From: an uncultured Acidobacteriota bacterium
GTDB lineage: Bacteria > Acidobacteriota > Terriglobia > Acidiferrales > UBA7541
DNA: 64,000 nucleotides
Assembly: GCA_963795355.1 (NCBI GenBank)
Contig: CAWCHM010000009.1
Span: forward strand, 172,932 to 236,931
Direction: 5' to 3'
A model generated the notes under the pieces. That model saw only the letters and a list, made by a program, of their open reading frames with translations, was not told where the DNA came from and ran no database searches. Position numbers and translations under genes: made by a program. Below, piece by piece: positions 3,488 through 37,436 of the stretch (position 1 is its first letter; each line of letters begins with the position of its first letter).

Positions 3488-4710
3488 TCACCTGTTTACG
3501 TTAGGTTCGGCGGTGAAGGGCACGGGGAAATTCAAAATTCCGTTCCATCGGTCGTCCGGATGTTGGTGACTATCCGTCACTACACACAGTTCCGGCACGC
3601 ACTCATACGTATCCACCAGGTCGGATTGCTCCCAAAAACTGACGAACCAGCTGTAGAGTCCCGGTCGTAGCGGAAGTATCGGAAACGCGTGGCGAAGTTC
3701 GTGACGGCCGATTTCGAGCTTCAATCCATCGATCGCCCGGCCCCAGACGATTTCTCGGTTGTGGTTGTAGAGCGCCACACCATGATGTCCGTACCGGATC
3801 GGCGTGTTGACCTGCAGCGCAAACTTGATCGTAACTGGCCCGAATGATTCCAATTTGTGGCGGTTATCCGGCTCCGCTCCTTCGATTTCCCACCCGTAAA
3901 TTGTGCCGCCGTTTCGCTCTGCTTATTGACCGCGTCGGGCTGCCGATCGCCCCGCGCCATCGCCGCTTCATAAGCACTCACAACTTCATGCGCAGGCCCC
4001 ACCATACGAACAGCCCCGCCATCCACCCACACCACCCGGTCGCACAATCTTCGCATCTGGTTCATCTGGTGCGACACCAGCACCACCGTTCGTCCCGCGC
4101 GCGCCACATCTCCCATCTTCCCCAGACACTTCTTCTGAAAATTGATGTCCCCGACTGCCAGCACTTCATCCACTAGCAAAATCTCCGGCTCCAGGTGTGC
4201 CGCCACCGCAAACGCCAGCCGCACATACATGCCACTCGAATAATGCTTCACCGGCGTGTCGATAAACTTTTCGATCTCCGCAAACGCGATGATCTCGTCC
4301 AGCTTTCGGTCGATCTCGCGCTTTTTCATTCCCAACAGCGACCCGCTGAAATATGTATTCTCTCGCCCGGACAGTTCGCCGTGAAATCCCGTCCCGACTT
4401 CCAGCAGGCTCCGCACGTGCCCGCGAATCTCCGCATGCCCGGTCGTCGGCCGCGTAATCCGCGACAATATCTTTAGCAGCGTCGTCTTCCCCGCTCCATT
4501 CCGCCCGATCAGCCCCATGACCTCGCCCTCTTTCACTTCGAGCGAAACGTCCTTCAGCGCCCAAAACGACTCCTGCTTCGAACGCCGCAGTGCCGCCACT
4601 GGATTCCGCGCAAATCGCGTGATCGAGTCGCGCAGCATCCCGCGCGCTTCCACCGCCCCGCGCGAGTACCGCTTCCCCAACCCCTCCGCCGCAATCACCG
4701 CCGTCGCCAT
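3488..4710 (-). pseudogene. wzt: Wzt ABC ATPase with a C-terminal carbohydrate-binding domain, split by a 1-bp frameshift near 3892-3896 (real, or an assembly error)
   Basis: Walker A GRNGAGKTT, signature YSSGM and Walker B LLVDE lie in ORF 3721-4710. The frame of ORF 3488-3853 continues as FTG|WEIEG...LRPGLY...GILNFP, which looks like a Wzt C-terminal domain. The joined length is about 407 aa. Confidence 0.85.
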
Positions 4711-27302: not shown

Positions 27303-27666
27303 GAGAAAAGTGCAGTTTACAGAAAAGCTTCTCCGCGTCAAGTGGTACAGACCGCCAGGTGTGGCGTGGCGGACAAGGGCAATACCGCTGAGTTCCGAAC
27401 GCAACAGGCCCGACGGACAACCTGCAGGCAGATTAGATGATGCTTCCCGATTTGGGAATCAGAGAAAACCAGGGAGCGCCACCCCTCCTGCGCGGCCGGA
27501 AGCGTCGTGCAACGCCGAGGTTGCGACCCGATTCTAAGAGGCTTAGGATGTTGGTAGGTGGCCCAAGGTTTCAAAAACCCTGGTTTCGTGCCCATGGGTT
27601 CAAAGCCACGGGTTCTGGCATCCAATGAGTCTCGCACGACAGGCATCAAGAAGACGGTTCTCCAAA

Positions 27667-28344
27667 ATGGCTAAACAGTCTCTTGCAGGTCGAGGATTTG
27701 GACGGGTTTTCCGGCTGGGCGTGATGCGCGGGCTCCGGTCCGTGGAAGTGAACCCGGATGATTTCCGGAAGCAACTGGCGAACAAGCACGGGCTGTGGAT
27801 ACCCAACTTTTCGCGCATGCATGATGTGCCCCTGGAGCATCTGGACGCGATCGCCAAGAAGTTGATCCGCGATGCGGAGCGGTTGGCGCTGGCGGAAGGC
27901 GCGGGGCTCGGTCTGGGCGGCATGATGACCGTGATCCCCGACACCGGCTTGCTGACAGCGATTACCTTGCGGCTGATTCAGCGGCTGTGCCTGCTCTATG
28001 GGTTCGAGCAACGCGGCGTGGACGACCGGATGGAGTTGTGGCTAGCGGCAGCGACCGCGACCGGCGTTGATTACGGCAAGGATCTCGTCGAGAAGCAGAT
28101 GTTCGAGAAAGTTGCGCCAAAGATCGCGCAGCGGCTGGCGACCAAGCTCGGAGCCGAAGCGGCCGAGAAGTGGGTTGGGCGGATGATTCCGCTGGCGAGT
28201 TCGGCGATTGGCGGCGCGCTGAACTTTTCGTTTGTGCGGACGTGGGGATGGCGCGTGCAGAAGAATTTGCGCGAGCGGCACATTTCGACGCGGGCGGCGG
28301 GTGCTCGGCCCGTGTACGGCACCCCGAAACCGGTCCTGGTCTAA
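27667..28344 (+). CDS. EcsC-family protein
   Basis: EGAGLGLGG...LRLIQRLCLLYGF...IPLASSAIGGALN pattern. Confidence 0.75.
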   Translation: MAKQSLAGRGFGRVFRLGVMRGLRSVEVNPDDFRKQLANKHGLWIPNFSRMHDVPLEHLDAIAKKLIRDAERLALAEGAGLGLGGMMTVIPDTGLLTAITLRLIQRLCLLYGFEQRGVDDRMELWLAAATATGVDYGKDLVEKQMFEKVAPKIAQRLATKLGAEAAEKWVGRMIPLASSAIGGALNFSFVRTWGWRVQKNLRERHISTRAAGARPVYGTPKPVLV

Positions 28345-28413: not shown

Positions 28414-28917
28414 ATGCACGTTACCAAGATGTCGCGAAAAAAACTGATTCTGGGATTTGTGTCACTGCCGCTGATTGCGCTGGGCATGATGCTGCTGCCG
28501 CAGCACGCCGCGTCGACGGCAGCGCAAGACACTGGGCAGGACAGCCCGAAAGATCCGGTGCCCGCATATCACTCCGAAGTTCCTCCGGGCCCGATGCCCG
28601 CGACGCTGGCTCCTGAGACGTTCACCGACGCGACAGTGCAGAACGCCTATGCGCTGGCGGCGAAGATAAAAAAAGTTTTGTATCAGCAACCGTGCTACTG
28701 CTACTGCGATCGCCACGCCGGACACGGCAGTCTCCTCGACTGCTACACCGGCAAGCACGCTGCGGATTGCGGCGTCTGCCTGCGCGAAGGCCTGTATGCG
28801 TACGAGCAGACCAAGAAGGGCAAGACACCCGCTCAGATTCGCGACGGAATCGAGAAGGGCGAGTGGAAGACCGTCGATATGACGAAGTATCAGATACCTA
28901 TCACAGCCGCGAAGTAA
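28414..28917 (+). CDS. PCYCGC-motif-type exported Cys/His-rich protein (PCYCYC variant)
   Basis: Signal peptide, QQPCYCYCDRHAGHGSLLDCY and HAADCGVC. Confidence 0.75.
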   Translation: MHVTKMSRKKLILGFVSLPLIALGMMLLPQHAASTAAQDTGQDSPKDPVPAYHSEVPPGPMPATLAPETFTDATVQNAYALAAKIKKVLYQQPCYCYCDRHAGHGSLLDCYTGKHAADCGVCLREGLYAYEQTKKGKTPAQIRDGIEKGEWKTVDMTKYQIPITAAK

Positions 28918-29114
28918 CAATTCCGAGCGACGAACGCCGTGCTCTCGGAACCCTGTAGATACTCTTAGCAATCTCCAACTTTCGTAAGCTCTTTCGTTCC
29001 ATTTATTTCGATTTCGTTCTTCCGTGAGAAACCGTTTGCGCACCTCGCGCAGTCTAATCCGCGACAGCGAACGCGGATGCGGTGCGAATCTGCGAAAACG
29101 ATCGGAGAATCGGA

Positions 29115-29522
29115 ATGAGAATGCGCGGGCAAGTTTGGATGTGGACCCTGGGAATGGCATTGGCGCTTGGACTAGTAGCGGCGCCTTCGCGAGTGGCGGC
29201 CCAGGATAAGGATCACGTGGTTTCGCTCGACGAATTGAAATCGGATGCGGCCAAGCCGGCGCAAACGCGCGACGCGAACGAAGCGGAAGTGCGTCACCTG
29301 TTGCAGACGGAAGCTGGTCAGCAAGCGTTGAAGCAAGCAAAAGTCGACTACGCGAAGGTCGACAAGGCGATCAGCCAACTGAGCGACGACGATCTGGCAA
29401 CGGTGGCCGAGAAGTCGCGCCAGGCCGATCACGACTTCGCCGCCGGTGGATTGTCGCAGACGCTAATCATCGTGATCGTACTGATCGTAATTTTGATCGT
29501 TGTACTCGCTCTCGTTTTTTGA
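29115..29522 (+). CDS. Exported small protein with a very hydrophobic C-terminus (PA2779-like), paralogue 1
   Basis: Signal peptide ending VAA|Q, helical body, LSDDDL...DFAAGG, then a 23-aa I/V/L tail. GGAG RBS. Confidence 0.8.
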   Translation: MRMRGQVWMWTLGMALALGLVAAPSRVAAQDKDHVVSLDELKSDAAKPAQTRDANEAEVRHLLQTEAGQQALKQAKVDYAKVDKAISQLSDDDLATVAEKSRQADHDFAAGGLSQTLIIVIVLIVILIVVLALVF

Positions 29523-29618
29523 CGCTGGGGCCGCCACCTCGTTCGCGTCCTTGCGCCCTTCGGGCGATTAACGGCAGCCATTTTCAGAACGGGCACAAGC
29601 CCGACAGAAACTCTCTTG

Positions 29619-29677
29619 CGCCTCCTGAGCCGTTCGTACACTGAGATTCACCCAGTGGACGAATTTCTCAGGAGGCG
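29619..29677 (+). promoter_or_regulatory. Hairpin that sequesters the Shine-Dalgarno of paralogue 2
   Basis: CGCCTCCTGAG (29619-29629) pairs with CTCAGGAGGCG (29667-29677), which contains AGGAGG. Inner pairs are TTCGT/ACGAA and CACTG/CAGTG. Confidence 0.6.
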
Positions 29678-29682
29678 TTTTC

Positions 29683-30087
29683 ATGCAGACGAAAAAGATC
29701 ACGCGGTTCGCCACGATGCTGCTCGCCGCAGCCGTGACCGCGGGGCCGATGCTGGCGCAATCGCAAGCCGACAAACATGTCGTCTCGCTCGGTGAGTTGA
29801 ACAAAGACGCCGCGGGGCCAATGCAAGCGCGGCGCGCGAACGAAGCGGATATTCGTCAGCTATTTGCGACCGTCGATGGGCAGAAGGCGCTGAAGTCGGC
29901 CAACGTCGAATACGCGAAAATCGATAGCGCCGTAAGCTCGATGAGCGACGAAGACGTTGCACGCATCTCGAGCCGAGCGCGCGAACTCAATCGGGATTTC
30001 GCCGGTGGTAATTTGACGGACCACGATCTGCTGGTGATTTTGATCGTTGTGTTGATCGTAGTTATCTTGATTGTGGTGCTGCGCTAA
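29683..30087 (+). CDS. Exported small protein with a very hydrophobic C-terminus (PA2779-like), paralogue 2
   Basis: Signal peptide ending MLA|Q. The mature region is about half identical to paralogue 1 by eye. MSDEDV...DFAGG is followed by a 25-aa tail. Confidence 0.82.
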   Translation: MQTKKITRFATMLLAAAVTAGPMLAQSQADKHVVSLGELNKDAAGPMQARRANEADIRQLFATVDGQKALKSANVEYAKIDSAVSSMSDEDVARISSRARELNRDFAGGNLTDHDLLVILIVVLIVVILIVVLR

Positions 30088-30145: not shown

Positions 30146-30712
30146 ATGCGAACAATTGTTTTGTTGATTGCCAGCTCTCTTTCGGCCGCGGGAGTTTTTG
30201 CCCAAGCGGAAAACGCGGACAAAGCAGGCATCTGGCTCGAGGTTCCTTTCATCAAGCAAACGGTTGAAGGTTGCGGGTCGGCGTCGATTGCGATGCTGCT
30301 GCAATATTGGTCCGCGCACGGGACGCAGATTGCGCCGGAGCGCGCGGACGTGGATGCGATCCAGAAGCAGCTTTATTCGCGCAAGGGACACGGAATTTAC
30401 GCCTCGGACCTGGAAAAATATTTGCGTGAGTCGGGGTTTCGCGTGTTTGCGTTGCGCGGCGAGTGGAGCGATCTTCGCGACCACTTGTCGAAGGGCCGTC
30501 CGCTGATTCTGAGCATCGAACCGGGGAGTTCTCGCGCTCCGCTACACTATGTTGTCGCGACCGGGATGGATTGGCAGCGTGACGCGGTATTTGTGAACGA
30601 CCCGGCGCGCGGCAAACTTTTGCGCATCGAGAGAGCGGAATTCGAGAAAGAATGGCTGGCGACCAAGAATTATTTGTTACTGGCGGTGCCCGCCTCCGCG
30701 CCTGCGGAATAA
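30146..30712 (+). CDS. Stand-alone exported C39-family cysteine peptidase
   Basis: Signal peptide (GVFA|Q) and the triad motifs PFIKQTVEGCG (Q, C), PLHYVV (H) and VNDP (D). No ABC transporter domain. Confidence 0.88.
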   Translation: MRTIVLLIASSLSAAGVFAQAENADKAGIWLEVPFIKQTVEGCGSASIAMLLQYWSAHGTQIAPERADVDAIQKQLYSRKGHGIYASDLEKYLRESGFRVFALRGEWSDLRDHLSKGRPLILSIEPGSSRAPLHYVVATGMDWQRDAVFVNDPARGKLLRIERAEFEKEWLATKNYLLLAVPASAPAE

Positions 30713-32526
30713 TTCGTTTCGTTGTTTTGGTTTTTTTCCTTGTTGCGTCAAACCTTCTATTGAGCGGGTTGAGTTTCGCTCAGCAAGCTTCCTCTACTTC
30801 GGAATCGAAACCGAAAGATGGCGACGTAAAGTCGCCGCTACACGATGGGGAAAAAGAGTCGCGCGCGCACGATCGGGACCAAAAGTTGCCGGCACAAGAC
30901 CCTGCCAGGCTTGCGGACGCGCAAAAGGCGTTTGATGCCGGGCAGTATGCGGATGCGGCGCGGCTGGCTCAGGGCCCACCGAATCCATCGGCTGATCTGG
31001 ATTTTCTGGCCGGGCTTTCGCTCGCGAAGTTACAGCGGTGGCAAGAGGCGCGTGCGGCGTTCTTGCAAGGGCAACGTAAATCGCCGCAGCAGGCGCGGTT
31101 TCTCGTGGAGTTGGCCGGTGTCGACTACAAACTGAGAGATGCACGCGCGGCGAAGCGCGAACTGCGGGCGGCATTGAAGCTGGAGCCGAAAGATAGGTAC
31201 ACGCTGGAATTTCTCGGCACGCTTTATTTTCTCGACGGCAATCTGGAAGCGGCGCTGAAATATTGGAATGCGATCGACAAGCCTCGATTGCGAAAAGTTT
31301 CGGTCGCGCCGCCACCGACGCTCGATCCCGCTTTGCTGCAAAACGCGATTGGATTCAACGCTCCGCAAATTTTAACGCGCGACGCGTTGCTCGGCGCAGA
31401 AGCTCGGCTCAACAATTTGGGAATTTATCCGCACCGGCGTGAGGAGCTCGCTCCCGCGGGCGACGGTAACTACGACTCGACGTTTCACATGGCGGAGCGC
31501 AATCTTTGGGGCGACACCTGGTGGGAAGGCGCGCTGACGTGGCTGAGCGGATTGCCCTACGCGACGATTTATCCGCAGGTTTTTAATCTCGAACACGAGG
31601 CGATAAACGTAACATCGCTGCTGCGGTGGGATTCGGAGAAGCGGCGCGCGTTTGTCGATGGCTCGATGCCACTGCTGCATCAATCGAAATATCGGCTGCA
31701 TGTTTATTTCGATGGCCGCAACGAGAACTGGAATTTGACGAATACATTTTTCGGCGGCGGCCCGGCACTCAGCGATCTGAATGTGCGGCGGGTTGCGGGC
31801 GGCGCGGAGCTGCGCTCGGTGATGAACGGGCGCTGGAGCTGGAGCACCGGAATCGAAATCGCGAATCGATCGTTTCGGAATCTGACGCCGGAGGCGACGG
31901 CTTCGGCCGCGGGCAAAACATTTTTCACCGATGGCAATTCGGTTTCGTATTGGGGGCGCATCGATCGTTCACTGCTGCGATTGCCCGAGCATCGTTTCAC
32001 GATCGTTGGATCGGGCGAAGGACGCGTGGGTCGCGAATTCGCGACGGGCTTCAGATCGTACGGCGCGGTGCGCGGATCGCTGACGGCGCACTGGCTGCCG
32101 CAGGCTACCGGTGACGACTACGAGATGCTGGCTCGCGTGCGCGCGGGCGAAGCGTTTGGCGATATTCCTTTCGACGAGTTGTATCAGTTGGGCATCGAGC
32201 GCGATAACGATTTGTGGCTCCGCGGGCACGCCGGGACCGATGACGGGCGCAAAGGCGCGGCGCCGCTGGGGCGACGATATTTCCTGGCGAACTGGGAATT
32301 GGATAAGCGCGTTTACTCGAACGGGCTTTTTACGGTGAAGCTGGGGCCTTTCGTCGATAACGGGGCGATTGCGGATTCCTCGGGATTGTTTGGATCGCAG
32401 AAGTGGCTCTGGGATACGGGAGCGCAGTGCAAGATCCGTGTTTTGAGCAGCGTGACGGTGGTGCTGATTTATGGCCGCGATCTGCGCGGCGGCAAGAATG
32501 TGTTTTATGGGACAGCGTTGCATTGA
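30652..32526 (+). CDS. Protein with TPR repeats, a POTRA-like segment and an outer-membrane beta-barrel (Omp85/TamA-like)
   Basis: Signal peptide (LSFA|Q), four TPR-like units, AEARLNNLGIY (POTRA-like), and alternating strands (RWSWSTGIEI, YFLANWELDK, TVVLIYGRD). It overlaps the C39 gene by 61 nt; the start is uncertain. Confidence 0.65.
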   Translation: MAGDQELFVTGGARLRACGIIRFVVLVFFLVASNLLLSGLSFAQQASSTSESKPKDGDVKSPLHDGEKESRAHDRDQKLPAQDPARLADAQKAFDAGQYADAARLAQGPPNPSADLDFLAGLSLAKLQRWQEARAAFLQGQRKSPQQARFLVELAGVDYKLRDARAAKRELRAALKLEPKDRYTLEFLGTLYFLDGNLEAALKYWNAIDKPRLRKVSVAPPPTLDPALLQNAIGFNAPQILTRDALLGAEARLNNLGIYPHRREELAPAGDGNYDSTFHMAERNLWGDTWWEGALTWLSGLPYATIYPQVFNLEHEAINVTSLLRWDSEKRRAFVDGSMPLLHQSKYRLHVYFDGRNENWNLTNTFFGGGPALSDLNVRRVAGGAELRSVMNGRWSWSTGIEIANRSFRNLTPEATASAAGKTFFTDGNSVSYWGRIDRSLLRLPEHRFTIVGSGEGRVGREFATGFRSYGAVRGSLTAHWLPQATGDDYEMLARVRAGEAFGDIPFDELYQLGIERDNDLWLRGHAGTDDGRKGAAPLGRRYFLANWELDKRVYSNGLFTVKLGPFVDNGAIADSSGLFGSQKWLWDTGAQCKIRVLSSVTVVLIYGRDLRGGKNVFYGTALH

Positions 32527-32784: not shown

Positions 32785-33066
32785 TTGGATTTTGACAGTT
32801 CGTATCTCCCATCAAATCCGGCACTTGGCGCAAAACGGTCGTTCGAATTCGATTGAAAGAGTTGAGGAGATTGCTACTGCGGCGGAACAAATTCGGGACT
32901 GAGTTGCGCGAGGCAATTGCCCCAGTCGTGCTCGATGACGATCGGTTCCAGAACCAGATTGGGGAGACGGGTGTGTCGGGGAGATGCTGGCGTGCGTCTA
33001 TATTTGCGGGGCGATGGGGTTGAGTGGGTGCATGTCGCGTTGGCCTGGGTGGGAGTTGTCCAAATC

Positions 33067-33094
33067 CCGCGATCTGTAAAACGATCGCGGCTAC
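33067..33094 (-). repeat. GTAG-tagged REP (CCGCGATC family), copy 1
   Basis: Minus-strand GTAG-CCGCGATC-N8-GATCGCGG; a second copy lies at 58992-59019. Confidence 0.75.
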
Positions 33095-33107
33095 AGGGTG
33101 GTGTTTT

Positions 33108-35159
33108 GTGATTCGGAGATTGATGGCGGTGGTGGGTGTGATGGTTTTTGTTTTGGTGGGAGGGCTGATGGCGATGGCGGGACCGCGCGGTGGGGCGGAT
33201 GCGCCGGGTTACTGGGGATTCGATACGAAGAATCTCGATCGGACGTGCAAGCCTTGCGACGATTTTTTTGAGTTTGCGATGGGCGGGTGGATGAAGGCGA
33301 ATCCGATTCCGCCGCAGTATCCGCGATGGGGATCGTTCACCGTGCTGCTGGACAAGAATCAGCAGAATTTGCGGACGATTCTGGATACGGAAGAGAAGAC
33401 GACCGCGAAGACGGGTTCGAACGAGCAGAAGATCGGCGATTTTTATGCGAGCTGCATGGACACGGCGGCGATCGACACGGCGGGCGCGAAGGCGATCGAG
33501 CCGGATATGGCGCGAATCGCGGCGGTGAAGAACACGACGGAATTGCAGGCGGAAGCGACGCGATTGCAGGAGAGCGGGATCAACGTGATGTTCCGATTCG
33601 GATCGCGACAGGATGCGAAGGATAGTTCGCAGGTGATCGCTACGGCAAGTCAGGGCGGACTGGGACTGCCGGAGCGCGACTATTATCTGCGCGACGACGA
33701 GAAGTCGAAGAAGCTGCGCGACGACTATCTGAAGCACGCGACGAAACTGTTTGAGCTGTTGGGCGACCCGGCGGACAAGGCAGCCGTGGAAGCAAGCGCG
33801 ATCATGGCGATCGAAACATCGCTGGCGAAGGCTTCAATGTCGAACGTGGATGTGCGCGATCCGCACAAAACGTACAACCGGATGACTGCGGAGGAAGCGC
33901 AGAAGCTGACACCGGATTTTTCGTGGAAGGCGTACTTCACGGAAGTGGGGCAGCCGGGGCTGAAAGAATTGAACGTCGGGCAGCCGGACTTTTTCAAGGC
34001 GCTGAACGCGGAATTGACGACTGTGCCGGTCGAAAACTGGAAAACGTATCTGCGGTGGAGGTTGGTGGATGTGACGGCGCCGGGGCTGTCGGAGCCGTTC
34101 GTGACAGAGGATTTCGATTTTCACGACAAGGATTTGCGCGGTGCGAAGGAAATTTTGCCGCGATGGAAGCGGTGTGTGCAGGCAACGGACCGGAATCTGG
34201 GCGAAGCGCTCGGGCAGGTCTACGTGGAGAAGTATTTCCCACCGGAGGCGAAGGCGCATGCGCTGGAGATGGTGCACAACCTGGTAGCGGCGCTGCACGA
34301 CGATTTGCAACAGCTGCCGTGGATGAGCCCGGAGACGCGGGCGCAGGCGACGGCGAAGTTACAAGCGTTTGGCGTGAAGATCGGGTATCCGGACAAGTGG
34401 CGGGATTATTCGGGGCTGACGATCGATCGCACGTCGTATATGCAGAACGAATTGCGAAGCGCGGCGTTTGAATTTCACCGGCAGGTGGAGAAGATCGGCA
34501 AGCCGGTGGATCGGACGGAATGGGGAATGACGCCTCCGACAGTGAACGCGTACAACCGCAGCAGCATGAACGAGATTGTTTTTCCGGCGGGGATTTTGCA
34601 GCCGCCATTTTACGACCCGAAAGCGGACGATGCCGTGAATTACGGCGGGATGGGCGCGGTGATCGGGCATGAGATCACGCATGGATTCGACGATCAGGGA
34701 AGCAAATTTGACGGGAAGGGGAATTTGCGCGATTGGTGGACGGCGGAGGATCAGAAGAATTTCAAGGAACGCGCGACATGCGTTTCGGATCAGTTCGACG
34801 GTTATGTCGTGGATGGGGATTTGCACGAAAACGGAAAACTGGTGCTGGGAGAAAGCATCGCGGACCTTGGCGGGCTGACGATCGCGTACGCGGCGTACGA
34901 GAAATCGTTGGAGGGAAAGCCGCGTCCGCCAGAGAAGGATGGGTTTACGCCGGAGCAGCGATTCTTTCTGGGATGGGCGCAGGTGTGGGGCGCGAACGAG
35001 CGGCTGGAGTATGCGCGGCTGCAGACGAATACCGATCCGCATCCATTGGCGAGATTTCGCGGGAATGGGCCGCTGTCGAATATGGCGGATTTCGCGAAGG
35101 CGTTTGGGTGCAAGAAGGGCGATGCGATGGTGCGGGAGAAGGTCTGCAAGATCTGGTGA
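33108..35159 (+). CDS. M13-family zinc metallopeptidase (neprilysin/PepO-like), copy 1
   Basis: PCDDFFEFAMGGW, GHEITHGFDD (HExxH), GESIAD, HP...RGNGPL and C-terminal CKIW. Start is GTG 33108 or ATG 33123. Confidence 0.95.
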   Translation: MIRRLMAVVGVMVFVLVGGLMAMAGPRGGADAPGYWGFDTKNLDRTCKPCDDFFEFAMGGWMKANPIPPQYPRWGSFTVLLDKNQQNLRTILDTEEKTTAKTGSNEQKIGDFYASCMDTAAIDTAGAKAIEPDMARIAAVKNTTELQAEATRLQESGINVMFRFGSRQDAKDSSQVIATASQGGLGLPERDYYLRDDEKSKKLRDDYLKHATKLFELLGDPADKAAVEASAIMAIETSLAKASMSNVDVRDPHKTYNRMTAEEAQKLTPDFSWKAYFTEVGQPGLKELNVGQPDFFKALNAELTTVPVENWKTYLRWRLVDVTAPGLSEPFVTEDFDFHDKDLRGAKEILPRWKRCVQATDRNLGEALGQVYVEKYFPPEAKAHALEMVHNLVAALHDDLQQLPWMSPETRAQATAKLQAFGVKIGYPDKWRDYSGLTIDRTSYMQNELRSAAFEFHRQVEKIGKPVDRTEWGMTPPTVNAYNRSSMNEIVFPAGILQPPFYDPKADDAVNYGGMGAVIGHEITHGFDDQGSKFDGKGNLRDWWTAEDQKNFKERATCVSDQFDGYVVDGDLHENGKLVLGESIADLGGLTIAYAAYEKSLEGKPRPPEKDGFTPEQRFFLGWAQVWGANERLEYARLQTNTDPHPLARFRGNGPLSNMADFAKAFGCKKGDAMVREKVCKIW

Positions 35160-35318
35160 GGGCGTGATGAAAACGAGGGTAGGCTAGGGTGCCACCGGGC
35201 GCTCGAGAATAACCTTTCGTTTTTGGCGGCTTAGCGTCTAAATAGCGACGGATTCGTGCGGTTCGGCCCAGGTCTGGGTCATCGGACAAATCAAATCGGA
35301 TTGTTGGTTGCGGACATG

Positions 35319-35343
35319 GGGCGCAGCGTCGCTGCGCCCGTAC
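35319..35343 (-). repeat. REP-like palindrome, GTAC/A-GGGCGCAGC family
   Basis: GGGCGCAGC-GTC-GCTGCGCCC-GTAC; other copies at 45349-45376 and, degenerate, near 59066. Confidence 0.7.
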
Positions 35344-35372
35344 ATGATTCGGCAGAAAGTTTGGAGAGAACG

Positions 35373-37436
35373 ATGATGCTGCGGCGGATGTGTGCGATGG
35401 CGGGGCTGGTGGTGGCGATTCTGGCCGGAACGACAATGGCGTTTGCCGGCGGGCAAGGCACGGCGGACGACAATGCAAAACTTGGTTTCAGCGTCGCGAA
35501 TATGGACACCACATGCAAGCCTTGCGATGACTTTTACAAGTACATCAATGGCGGATGGATGAAGAAGAATCCGATTCCGGCGCAGTATCCGGCGTGGGGC
35601 CCGGATCAAATCATGTTTGAGCGGACTGAGGCGCGGCTGCACGACATTTTAGAGGCGGCGGCAGCGAACAAGTCGGCGGCGGCGGATTCGAACGAGCAGA
35701 AAGTCGGCGATTACTACGCGAGCTGCATCGACACGAAAGCGATCGATGCGAAGGGGCTGAAGCCGCTCGACGGATATTTGCAGAGCATTGCAGCGATGCA
35801 CGACGGTGCGTCGCTACTGGAAACCGCGGCGCGATTGCAGGAGCAGGGCACCAACGTGTTGTTTGGGTATGGCTCGGATCAGGATTTTGCCGACAGCACG
35901 CAGGTGATCGGCGAGGTGCGGCAAGCCGGGCTTGGATTGCCGGATCGCGACTACTACACGCGCGACGACGACAAATCGAAGGAAATCCGGAAGCAGTACA
36001 TCGAGCACATGACGAAGATGTTTGTGCTGATGGGCGACGCGAAGGAATACGCGGCGAAGGAAGCGGAGACCGTGCTGGGGATCGAGACTTCGCTGGCGAA
36101 AGCTTCGCTGAATAACGTCGATCTGCGCGATCCGCAGAAAAACTACCACATGATGAGCGTGGCGGACGCGCAGAAGCTGACGCCGCACTGGAATTGGGAC
36201 GCGTATTTCCACGCGATTGGGAGCCCACAGCTGACCAAGATGAACGTGTCGCAGCCGGAATTTTTCAAGGCGATGAACGAGCTTCTCGCGAGCGTCTCGA
36301 TGGACGACTGGAAGACATACTACCGGTGGCAGTTGATTCACCGGTCGGCGCGGCTGCTGTCGGATCCGTTTGTGCAAGAGAACTTCGATTTTTCGGGGCG
36401 CGTGCTCGAAGGTACGACGGAGATGCGCGTGCGATGGCGGCGGTGTTCAGCGGCTGTGGACGACGGATTGCCGGAAGCGCTCGGGCAGATGTATGTGGCG
36501 AAATATTTTCCGCCGGCGGCGAAGGCGCGCGTGCTGGAGATGGTCCACAACCTGTTGGCGGCTTTGCACGAGGATTTGAAAGGCTTGGAATGGATGAGCC
36601 CGGAGACGAGGCAAGCCGCAGCCGAGAAACTGCAAGCGTTTGCGCTGAAGATCGGGTATCCGGACAAATGGCGCGATTATTCGAAACTGAAAATCGATCG
36701 CGAGTCATATGTCGGTAATGTGTTTCGCTCGACGGAGTTTGAAACCGCGCGCGACCTGGCGAAAATCGGCAAACCCGTCGATCACGCGGAATGGGGCATG
36801 TCGGCGCCGACGATCAACGCTTACTATAATCCGCAAATGAACGAGATCGTCTTTCCGGCAGGAATTTTGCAGGGCGTGTTTTTTGATCCCGACCGGGCGG
36901 ATTCGTATAACTACGGCGCGATTGGTTCGATCATTGGACATGAAATCACGCACGGGTTCGACGATCAGGGAGCGCAGTTCGATCCCAAGGGAAATCTGAA
37001 GAACTGGTGGACCGAGAAGGACCTGAAGAATTTTCAGGGTCGCGGGGAGTGCATTGCGAAGCAATTCGACGGATTCGAAATCGAAAAGGGGTTGCACGAA
37101 AACGGGAAGCTTGTCGAAGGCGAGAGCATCGCGGACCTCGGTGGGCTGACGATTTCGTATGCGGCGTTCGAAAAATCGATGCCGCCGGGCATTGCGGGTA
37201 AGACGAAGGATGCGAATGGATTCACGCCGCAGCAGCAATTCTTTGTGGGATATGCGGCGGTGGCGGCGATGAATTTGCGGCCAGAGTATGCGCGGTTGTT
37301 GGCGAATACCGATCCGCATCCGTTGCCGGAATTTCGCGTGAATGGGCCGCTTTCGAATATGGAGGCGTTCAAGAAGGCGTTTGGATGCGAGAAGGGGCAG
37401 CCGATGGTGCGGGAGGATGTTTGCAAGATTTGGTGA
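35373..37436 (+). CDS. M13-family zinc metallopeptidase, copy 2 (tandem paralogue)
   Basis: PCDDFYKY, NAYY, GHEITHGFDD, GESIAD and CKIW. Start taken at MMLRR, near a GGAG RBS. Confidence 0.95.
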   Translation: MMLRRMCAMAGLVVAILAGTTMAFAGGQGTADDNAKLGFSVANMDTTCKPCDDFYKYINGGWMKKNPIPAQYPAWGPDQIMFERTEARLHDILEAAAANKSAAADSNEQKVGDYYASCIDTKAIDAKGLKPLDGYLQSIAAMHDGASLLETAARLQEQGTNVLFGYGSDQDFADSTQVIGEVRQAGLGLPDRDYYTRDDDKSKEIRKQYIEHMTKMFVLMGDAKEYAAKEAETVLGIETSLAKASLNNVDLRDPQKNYHMMSVADAQKLTPHWNWDAYFHAIGSPQLTKMNVSQPEFFKAMNELLASVSMDDWKTYYRWQLIHRSARLLSDPFVQENFDFSGRVLEGTTEMRVRWRRCSAAVDDGLPEALGQMYVAKYFPPAAKARVLEMVHNLLAALHEDLKGLEWMSPETRQAAAEKLQAFALKIGYPDKWRDYSKLKIDRESYVGNVFRSTEFETARDLAKIGKPVDHAEWGMSAPTINAYYNPQMNEIVFPAGILQGVFFDPDRADSYNYGAIGSIIGHEITHGFDDQGAQFDPKGNLKNWWTEKDLKNFQGRGECIAKQFDGFEIEKGLHENGKLVEGESIADLGGLTISYAAFEKSMPPGIAGKTKDANGFTPQQQFFVGYAAVAAMNLRPEYARLLANTDPHPLPEFRVNGPLSNMEAFKKAFGCEKGQPMVREDVCKIW

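Follow-up and report, generated by a model that had tools for sequence, protein, structure and literature searches.

Two small genes lying side by side in a stretch of acidobacterial DNA each encode an exported protein in which a glycine-ended motif stands ahead of an aliphatic C-terminal tail. Is this motif a cleavage site and, if so, what would be released, and by which enzyme? The stretch (hereafter the window) comprises 64,000 nucleotides from an uncultured Acidobacteriota bacterium (GTDB lineage Bacteria; Acidobacteriota; Terriglobia; Acidiferrales; UBA7541; NCBI GenBank assembly GCA_963795355.1, contig CAWCHM010000009.1, positions 172,932 to 236,931 of the forward strand); positions below are those of the window, and the four genes at issue, with all parts of their products, lie on its plus strand. 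A first-pass annotation had read the motif as a stretched double-glycine site akin to those of Nif11/NHLP-type leaders, cleavage after which would yield either an almost purely aliphatic peptide or a helical domain of approximately 85 residues freed from a membrane anchor; of these two outcomes, the second fits best. The strongest evidence lies beyond that annotation: the next gene encodes an active-looking C39 peptidase with a signal peptide, and throughout the phylum this gene and the small gene tend to occur in the same genomes. The small proteins, this peptidase, and the TPR-Omp85 barrel protein encoded after it are best explained as one functional unit, which looks like an envelope processing system and not like a classical bacteriocin leader.

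Small proteins A (135 amino acids, 29115–29522) and B (134 amino acids, 29683–30087) are co-directional paralogues that share 42% identity and a common layout: a Sec signal peptide, a polar and helical region of about 80 residues, a box of the LSD[DE][DE][LV] type, the motif DFA(A)GG, and an aliphatic tail of 23–25 residues. The start of A was placed at the ATG at 29115 in preference to an upstream GTG at 29082, by alignment to homologues beginning MRMRGK. Its predicted Sec signal peptide (MRMRGQVWMWTLGMALALGLVAAPSRVAA, followed by Q; 29115–29201) was recognised by reading the sequence, from a basic N-region, a hydrophobic core, and a V-A-A site, and leads into a helical, presumably periplasmic domain and a C-terminal membrane helix. 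Read in order, A carries L89SDDDL94 (29379–29396, family positions -23 to -18), 16 residues, and G111G112, followed by the 23-residue tail LSQTLIIVIVLIVILIVVLALVF (29451–29519), which forms the membrane helix; the motif D-F-A-A-G-G occupies 29433–29450, and the glycine that is invariant in the family is G111 (29445–29447). Protein B carries M87SDEDV92 (29941–29958), 15 residues, and G108G109, followed by the 25-residue tail NLTDHDLLVILIVVLIVVILIVVLR (30010–30084), in which a polar NLTDHD spacer precedes 18 consecutive isoleucine, leucine, or valine residues and a terminal arginine. Its motif, D-F-A-G-G (29995–30009), ends in the invariant G109 (30007–30009), a candidate C39 cut site or helix C-cap. 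Every residue quoted in the first-pass annotation—LSDDDL-x16-GG and MSDEDV-x15-GG, with DFA before (A)GG—is thus present; the start it gave, 29380, falls one base inside the leucine codon at 29379–29381.

The AlphaFold2 (AF2) model of B, with a predicted local distance difference test (pLDDT) score of 69, places helices at residues 36–62, 64–72, 77–86, and 89–107, then a loop at 108–112 (GGNLT) and a membrane helix at 113–133. No solved relative of the B domain was found by Foldseek against the PDB (best E = 3.6) or by a profile search of PDB sequences. A search upstream of A for sigma-54 and sigma-70 promoters gave nothing above chance.

By sequence, A and B are members of the catalogued PA2779 family, which is without known function: they score 43.2 and 40.2 bits, respectively, against NCBIfam NF033919, for which the cut-off is 40, and B also gives a sub-threshold match to Pfam DUF6627. 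The layout of that family, namely a signal peptide, a C-terminal membrane helix, and an adjoining PA2778-like C39 gene, is found here in full. A scan of the whole genome (5.6 Mb) returned A and B as its only two PA2779-family genes. Close homologues are found in 'Candidatus Acidoferrum' and further Acidobacteriota, and related proteins are named 'PA2779 family protein [Terracidiphilus]' or 'DUF6627 family protein [Vicinamibacteria]' by NCBI. A profile search of 1.84 billion representatives at E <= 0.001 delimited 909 family clusters at 50% identity.

Residue frequencies were taken from 130 representatives of these clusters that possess a C-terminal membrane helix, and the motif was followed at individual loci in 225 small open reading frames from 201 related loci of many acidobacterial lineages. 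Among the representatives, position -1 is glycine in 100%; position -2 is alanine in 88% and glycine in 11%; position -3 is alanine in 79%; position -4 is phenylalanine in 81% and otherwise leucine, valine, or isoleucine; position -5 is aspartate in 80%; and position -7 is polar, being glutamine in 70%. The upstream box is likewise conserved, with L(-23) in 91%, S(-22) in 71%, D(-21) in 83%, E or D(-19) in 96%, and L(-18) in 83%. Conservation is then lost sharply at +1, where alanine (33%) and arginine (22%) lead, and in 99 of the 130 the invariant glycine lies six residues ahead of the uncharged stretch. The small open reading frames show the dipeptide AG in 214 of the 225 and GG in 10, with the glycine lost in one. 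Of the 96 proteins closest to B, 42 have glycine and 50 alanine at position -2, whereas -1 is constant.

The real family motif is therefore D-F-A-[A/G]-G, usually six residues before the membrane helix, and GG as such is not conserved. With alanine at -2 in around 90% of homologues, the first-pass annotation runs into the very outcome that it had itself named as speaking against its proposal; a cleavage site is still plausible nonetheless, because the glycine at -1 is invariant. Since the motif is a family signature, the LSD...DFA-[A/G]-G pattern is not due to chance. The register does shift, however: the invariant glycine is the second of the GG pair in B and the first in A (DFAAG/G, the slash marking the bond), so a family-wide cut site in A would sit one residue upstream of GG/LSQ.

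Distant members keep the core of the motif. A subfamily with a CYCY tail retains D-V-[AV]-A-G (with H next), and the PA2779-like protein of locus L225 has Q-A-A-G-N. In the RefSeq-annotated PA2779 protein of Azoarcus sp. KH32C, M-P-A-G-G-N-L-T is paired residue for residue by hhalign with F-A-G-G-N-L-T of B (96% probability); helix 4 of the Azoarcus member is three residues shorter, and the x16 spacing is hence lineage-specific.

Among the 225 small proteins, L087:3974-4375 is the only one without the invariant glycine (NFAAAA). The C39 gene of the same genome (L206:1498-2055) lies outside the module, alone among unrelated genes, and the joint loss of glycine and displacement of the peptidase gene is a single, suggestive case in favour of cleavage. 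In six members of one sub-clade (P0088, P0090, P0097, P0100, P0346, P0351), an insertion of three residues duplicates the site to F-[AS]-[AG]-G-[RKN]-A-G-S-LSDRDL, giving two consecutive x-G units. Two paralogue types are also stable, and A and B types coexist in the closest relatives (24 two-copy loci): in type A, the membrane helix follows G-G almost immediately and the C terminus reads ...VF; type B proteins contain the polar spacer L[ST]D[HR]D and finish with arginine or histidine.

The gene after B (30146–30712) encodes a C39-like cysteine peptidase of 188 amino acids, predicted to be periplasmic, with its own signal peptide. It matches Peptidase_C39_2 (PF13529; E = 8.5e-18, 65.7 bits) and Peptidase_C39 (PF03412; E = 2.1e-12, 47.4 bits), both above the gathering score. 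The catalytic set is present as Q38, C43 (30272–30274), H134, and D152 and is retained in 190–192 of 193 orthologues. On alignment to the peptidase domain of ComA, C43 falls on chain residue 17, and H134 and D152 align as well; we take these ComA positions to be its catalytic Cys, His, and Asp. The peptidase thus looks periplasmic and active, as judged from its sequence. Against the PA2778 equivalog model NF033920, it scores 44.6 bits (E = 1.1e-11), below the cut-off of 150, and the match covers model positions 4–148 of 255, which is the N-terminal half; the shortfall is explained by the TPR half, which here sits on the barrel protein. After PA2778, its top NCBIfam match is the NHLP-type peptidase–ATP-binding cassette (ABC) exporter, a weak match to the peptidase domain. 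Selenocysteine was considered for in-frame stops flagged in the C39 matches of three genomes and was discarded, the stops lying outside the gene and the catalytic Cys being an ordinary codon.

The third gene of the module (30652–32526) overlaps the peptidase gene by 61 nucleotides (30652–30712) and encodes a TPR-POTRA-Omp85 outer-membrane protein of 624 amino acids, identified by AF2 and Foldseek. The AF2 model, of high confidence (pLDDT 85.6), comprises a TPR region at residues 82–208, a POTRA-like domain at 212–281 (beta-alpha-alpha-beta-beta), and a barrel at 309–623, with BamA and TamA as the top Foldseek matches (E ~1e-13, probability 1.0). As modelled, the protein would thus have both a POTRA domain and the 16-stranded barrel fold of the Omp85 superfamily. 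Sequence models scarcely detect the barrel (NF047779, E = 0.0028).

Linkage of the three genes is widespread. Of the 201 acidobacterial loci, 184 show the order small gene(s), C39, TPR-barrel, and another carries the three genes in a different arrangement; a contig end truncates six, and the rest are exceptions. The small gene is present once in 177 loci and twice in 24. In an even sample of the phylum (301 genomes), 27 genomes carry both the small gene and the C39 gene, 4 the small gene only, 17 the C39 gene only, and 253 neither (Fisher p = 7e-23). Orphan small genes turn out to be additional paralogues, a complete module being present in the same genome. Of the loci without a separate C39 gene, L112 has a fusion, L087 has its C39 gene elsewhere, and L063 belongs to an incomplete genome of 2.8 Mb. 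The flanks of the module in the window are an EcsC gene (27625–28344) and a CYCXC (seleno)protein-family gene (28414–28917) upstream, and tandem M13 (neprilysin-type) metallopeptidase genes (33024–35159 and 35256–37436) downstream. EcsC, CYCXC, and M13 genes are syntenic in 20–35 of 41 close-relative loci and absent from 160 more distant ones; conserved only among close relatives, they leave exactly the small gene, C39, and TPR-barrel as the conserved unit.

Peptidase and barrel are fused in some lineages. A Terriglobia genome carries an in-frame C39-TPR-POTRA-Omp85 fusion of 594 amino acids (L205:1465-3249, the same place as L112:4360-6144), and five Vicinamibacteria-type genomes carry C39-TPR-barrel fusion open frames of ~690–760 amino acids (L220–L224). 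In these five genomes the small gene is unlinked, yet the small-gene and C39 counts are equal (1:1, 1:1, 1:1, 2:2, and 2:2). A Vicinamibacteria-type sister subfamily with weak DUF6627 matches (L211–L219, e.g. L213:5001-5447; P0248–P0361) has, after the membrane helix, a conserved acidic, aromatic, and Cys-containing tail, ...DDGYYDDCYCY, predicted to be cytoplasmic. This CYCY-tail subfamily lacks a C39 neighbour and was considered as a counter-example to the pairing; it was set aside, as the same genomes hold an equal number of C39-TPR-barrel fusions elsewhere. L225 and Azoarcus represent a third layout, in which the gene after the small gene encodes a C39-TPR protein that has no barrel; the L225 C39-TPR protein covers NF033920 positions 2–239 but scores only 103 bits. 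Five single-contig genomes of one genus (G101, G161, G183, G213, G273) possess two to five small-gene copies and one matching C39 gene, with the nearest small gene ~4–10 kb from C39 and, in G213 and G273, on the opposite strand. On the Azoarcus sp. KH32C plasmid pAZKH (NC_020548.1; L227:3875-4834), the open frame of the PA2778 coding sequence extends upstream of the annotated start (locus position 4088). This extension holds a lipobox (LSLAAC) and the catalytic-Cys motif (QEDYQCGPAA), and the RefSeq start therefore appears to lie too far downstream.

How the unit might work can be sketched from this layout. Sec export of A and B would leave their ~80-residue four-helix domain in the periplasm, tethered to the inner membrane by the C-terminal helix, and the predicted topology has the small-protein domain, the peptidase, and the TPR/POTRA region all facing the periplasm. 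The last periplasmic helix (LSDEEL...DF) would dock on the C39 peptidase as the helix of a double-glycine leader does, and the enzyme would then cut at or next to the invariant glycine of D-F-A-[A/G]-G, about six residues above the membrane. The helical domain would leave its anchor and reach the TPR/POTRA-barrel protein, to be exported, displayed on the cell surface, or used to regulate the barrel, with a hydrophobic stub of 23–25 residues remaining in the inner membrane.

The placing of the cut rests on the shape of the motif. In characterised C39 substrates, residues -1 to -3 are extended and -4 to about -12 are helical, with hydrophobic residues at -4, -7, and -12 held in a groove; -3 is nearly always alanine, -4 is hydrophobic, -2 is glycine, -1 is G, A, or S, and the P' side is free (PMC6363468). 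The family motif resembles such a P side: it closes a helix, carries F(-4), A(-3), A or G(-2) in 99%, and G(-1), and leaves +1 free. Because of this shape, the peptidase would most likely cut at or beside the invariant glycine. The AF2 model of B also suggests the geometry of a leader helix with its GG, as the motif is placed at the C-terminal end of helix 4 and followed by the loop. Beyond the motif, cleavage is supported by the gene linkage, fusions, and co-occurrence, by the intact catalytic residues and signal peptide of the peptidase and its match to the NHLP-type exporter, and by the precedent of FapD (PMC5557850). While family membership, conservation, linkage, and folds are shown by the data, we infer the topology, the cut and the bond at which it falls, and what becomes of the two pieces; that the C39 enzyme cuts at the motif and so releases the helical domain is an evenly balanced proposition. 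A fuller version, in which the module constitutes an undescribed Omp85-based release or secretion route—an anchored Sec precursor, a periplasmic C39 clip at D-F-A-[A/G]-G as a reversed-register variant of the double-glycine site, and a TPR/POTRA hand-over to the barrel for export or surface assembly—is speculative and would, in our estimation, more probably prove wrong than right.

Several observations weigh against cleavage. Gene context proves partnership and not a protease–substrate relation. The canonical order, G(-2) followed by G, A, or S(-1), is reversed here to A or G(-2) and a fixed G(-1); position -7 is polar and not leucine; and the LSDEEL box lies 11 residues (three helical turns) farther from the site than in known substrates, across a gap that varies between lineages. 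Near-invariant residues also occur in the N-terminal domain (H32, V34, L39, and R50), which makes this domain more than a leader. Fused and lipoprotein peptidases would be tethered to the outer membrane, and the site is only about six residues from the inner membrane, so an extended linker would be needed to reach it. Finally, an invariant glycine that ends a helix ahead of a membrane helix would also be expected of a structural C-cap or hinge, glycine being the favoured residue just past the C terminus of a helix. The small protein may then stay anchored in the inner membrane permanently and partner the C39/TPR-Omp85 pair as an adaptor, inhibitor, receptor, or trans-envelope tether, with the glycine capping the helix and allowing a kink and with the C39 substrate elsewhere. 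The modelled succession of helix, loop, and membrane helix in B agrees with this, as do the departures from the canonical glycine rule and spacing, the difficulty that an outer-membrane-tethered peptidase would have in reaching the inner membrane, and the conservation of membrane helix and polar spacer within subfamilies; the conserved cytoplasmic DDCYCY tail of one subfamily suggests that the anchored end matters. A hinge alone, however, leaves unexplained why D(-5), F(-4), A(-3), and A/G(-2) should be ~80–99% conserved ahead of a free +1 and why they should resemble the V-A-G-G end of C39 substrates. The conserved module encodes no alternative substrate, and the copy numbers of the small gene and C39 track each other. 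We regard a permanent, uncut partner as possible, at a distinctly lower probability than cleavage by the C39 enzyme.

Cleavage need not release the helical domain as the product: the N-terminal part may instead be a leader and the aliphatic peptide of 23–25 amino acids the product, as in a bacteriocin or other ribosomally synthesised and post-translationally modified peptide, with the product perhaps membrane-active and exported by the barrel. The long conserved N-terminal part, the glycine site, and the short C-terminal part would suit such a precursor, as would the weak match of the peptidase to the NHLP exporter peptidase domain and the length of NHLP and Nif11 leaders, which is also 70–83 amino acids (PMC2887384). 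The likeness to these leaders that the first-pass annotation noted holds for the LSDEEL-like box and for hydrophobic-A-[A/G]-G, both of which are conserved, and fails for family membership. Five family members gave no match to TIGR03798, TIGR03793, or Pfam Nif11 even at E <= 10, and the consensus G(-2), G/A/S(-1), L(-12)xxxE(-8)L(-7) is not present, given alanine at -2 in 88–95%, a box at -23 to -18, and glutamine at -7 in 70%. The putative core is an aliphatic membrane helix of conserved type in all members, neither hypervariable nor enriched in Cys, Ser, or Thr, and its neighbours are EcsC, CYCXC, TPR-Omp85, and M13 genes, with no ABC transporter, modifying enzyme, or immunity gene near the module. 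With a Sec signal on the precursor, moreover, the severed tail would stay in the inner membrane of its own producer, and the CYCY subfamily adds a cytoplasmic tail. Lacking an exporter, a modifying enzyme, and a variable core, and with the stub staying in its own membrane, a hydrophobic peptide product is improbable. The remaining proposal, that the C39 enzyme is an antibacterial effector and the small protein its immunity factor, derives from a transposon-directed insertion-site sequencing screen of the H1 type VI secretion system (H1-T6SS) of P. aeruginosa, which listed PA2778 as a candidate toxin beside a small protective gene and did not follow it up (preprint 10.1101/733030). C39-family toxins do exist, an example being StbD-CT, which cleaves GyrB and ParE at Gly-Gly sites (10.64898/2026.05.07.723447). 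Sec signals on both proteins and a lipobox on the Azoarcus peptidase are, however, not the layout of T6SS cargo, and fusions of the peptidase to an Omp85 barrel of housekeeping type recur; these two facts make a toxin–immunity pair the least probable of the readings considered, to be entertained only barely. Besides, the module is present as a single copy, is conserved by vertical descent and in synteny, and shows none of the features of polymorphic toxins.

To our knowledge, what is understood of C39 peptidases concerns almost exclusively the cytoplasmic domains that belong to bacteriocin exporters, and we know of no substrate identified for periplasmic C39 enzymes such as FapD. In the present family, a candidate substrate with a narrowly delimited candidate site is linked genetically, one to one, to its putative enzyme, which is in turn linked to an Omp85-type barrel that is scarcely visible to standard sequence models. 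The module is widespread in soil Acidobacteriota (the 909 clusters) and has a proteobacterial cousin in PA2779/PA2778. Literature searches on PA2779, PA2778, and DUF6627 returned passing mentions only; those combining C39 with Omp85/POTRA or with periplasm/TPR returned FapD and a contact-dependent inhibition (CDI) toxin, not this module; and no publication was found on the split layout (a free periplasmic C39 with TPR-POTRA-Omp85), the fused variants, or the motif. If cleavage is true, it would establish the rule by which periplasmic C39 enzymes recognise their sites and give a function to two families of 'unknown function', and it might reveal a new use of Omp85; if it is not, the motif would be no more than a helix cap, conserved in a partner protein that is tethered to the membrane.

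Set beside known systems, the locus shares features with several. The canonical double-glycine leader reads L(-12)xxxE(-8)L(-7)..V(-4)A(-3)G(-2)G(-1) (PMC6363468; PMC2887384), and the classical leader logo is [DE]-L-[ST]-[DE]-x-[DE]-L-x-x-[VL]-x-G-G (PMC2887384). In common with the leaders of ComA, LahT, and PCAT1, the module has a Cys/His/Asp C39 enzyme, an acidic L-S-D-E-E-L box, a hydrophobic -4, alanine at -3, small residues at -2 and -1 at the end of a helix, and a variable P' side. It differs from them in its A/G-G site, in a box ~11 residues farther away, in a polar -7, and in the lack of an ABC transporter; substrate and enzyme would both be Sec-exported and meet in the periplasm, and the C-terminal part would be an anchor instead of a peptide product.

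That a signal peptide, a leader, a GG, and a core should follow one another on a Sec-exported protein had been deemed unusual in the first-pass annotation, a judgement tempered by the published precedent of FapD. This C39 protease is exported by Sec, has to be catalytically active in the periplasm, and is needed for secretion via a dedicated outer-membrane barrel; no substrate of FapD has yet been identified (PMC5557850). In the Fap system of Pseudomonas (FapD with FapF), as here, a Sec-exported C39 enzyme is encoded together with Sec-exported small proteins and an outer-membrane barrel. FapF is, however, a trimeric 12-stranded barrel with a coiled coil, as opposed to the BamA/TamA-like TPR-POTRA-Omp85 protein, and the Fap substrates consist of amyloid repeats rich in Asn and Gln and have no C-terminal membrane anchor, whereas the present proteins are helical and without repeats and show no sequence relation to them. 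With neither an FapF-type barrel nor Asn/Gln-rich repeats, the module does not belong to the Fap amyloid system.

C-terminal sorting signals offer a further parallel. In the LPXTG/sortase, PEP-CTERM/exosortase, and GlyGly-CTERM/rhombosortase systems, a short motif precedes a spacer, then comes a membrane helix, and the C terminus is a brief stretch that is frequently basic; the enzyme is encoded in the same genome or operon. The small proteins share this succession of motif, spacer, helix, and short end on an exported protein with a dedicated enzyme. Here, however, the place of the membrane transpeptidase or rhomboid would be taken by a soluble, periplasmic, papain-like C39 peptidase, the motif is situated outside the membrane, and the module has one dedicated small cargo in place of a variety of proteins.

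A direct counterpart is the PA2779/PA2778 pair (NF033919/NF033920, DUF6627; Azoarcus pAZKH), which has, as here, a signal peptide, a helical domain, x-A-G-G or x-A-A-G, a C-terminal membrane helix, and a C39 gene directly next to the small gene. In the PA2778 type, the TPR region is carried by the peptidase itself; in the window it is carried by the POTRA-Omp85 barrel protein, and the peptidase is a free protein of 188 amino acids. The Azoarcus PA2778 protein is a lipoprotein (LAAC lipobox) without an accompanying barrel gene, whereas in the window the barrel gene is present and the small gene is duplicated.

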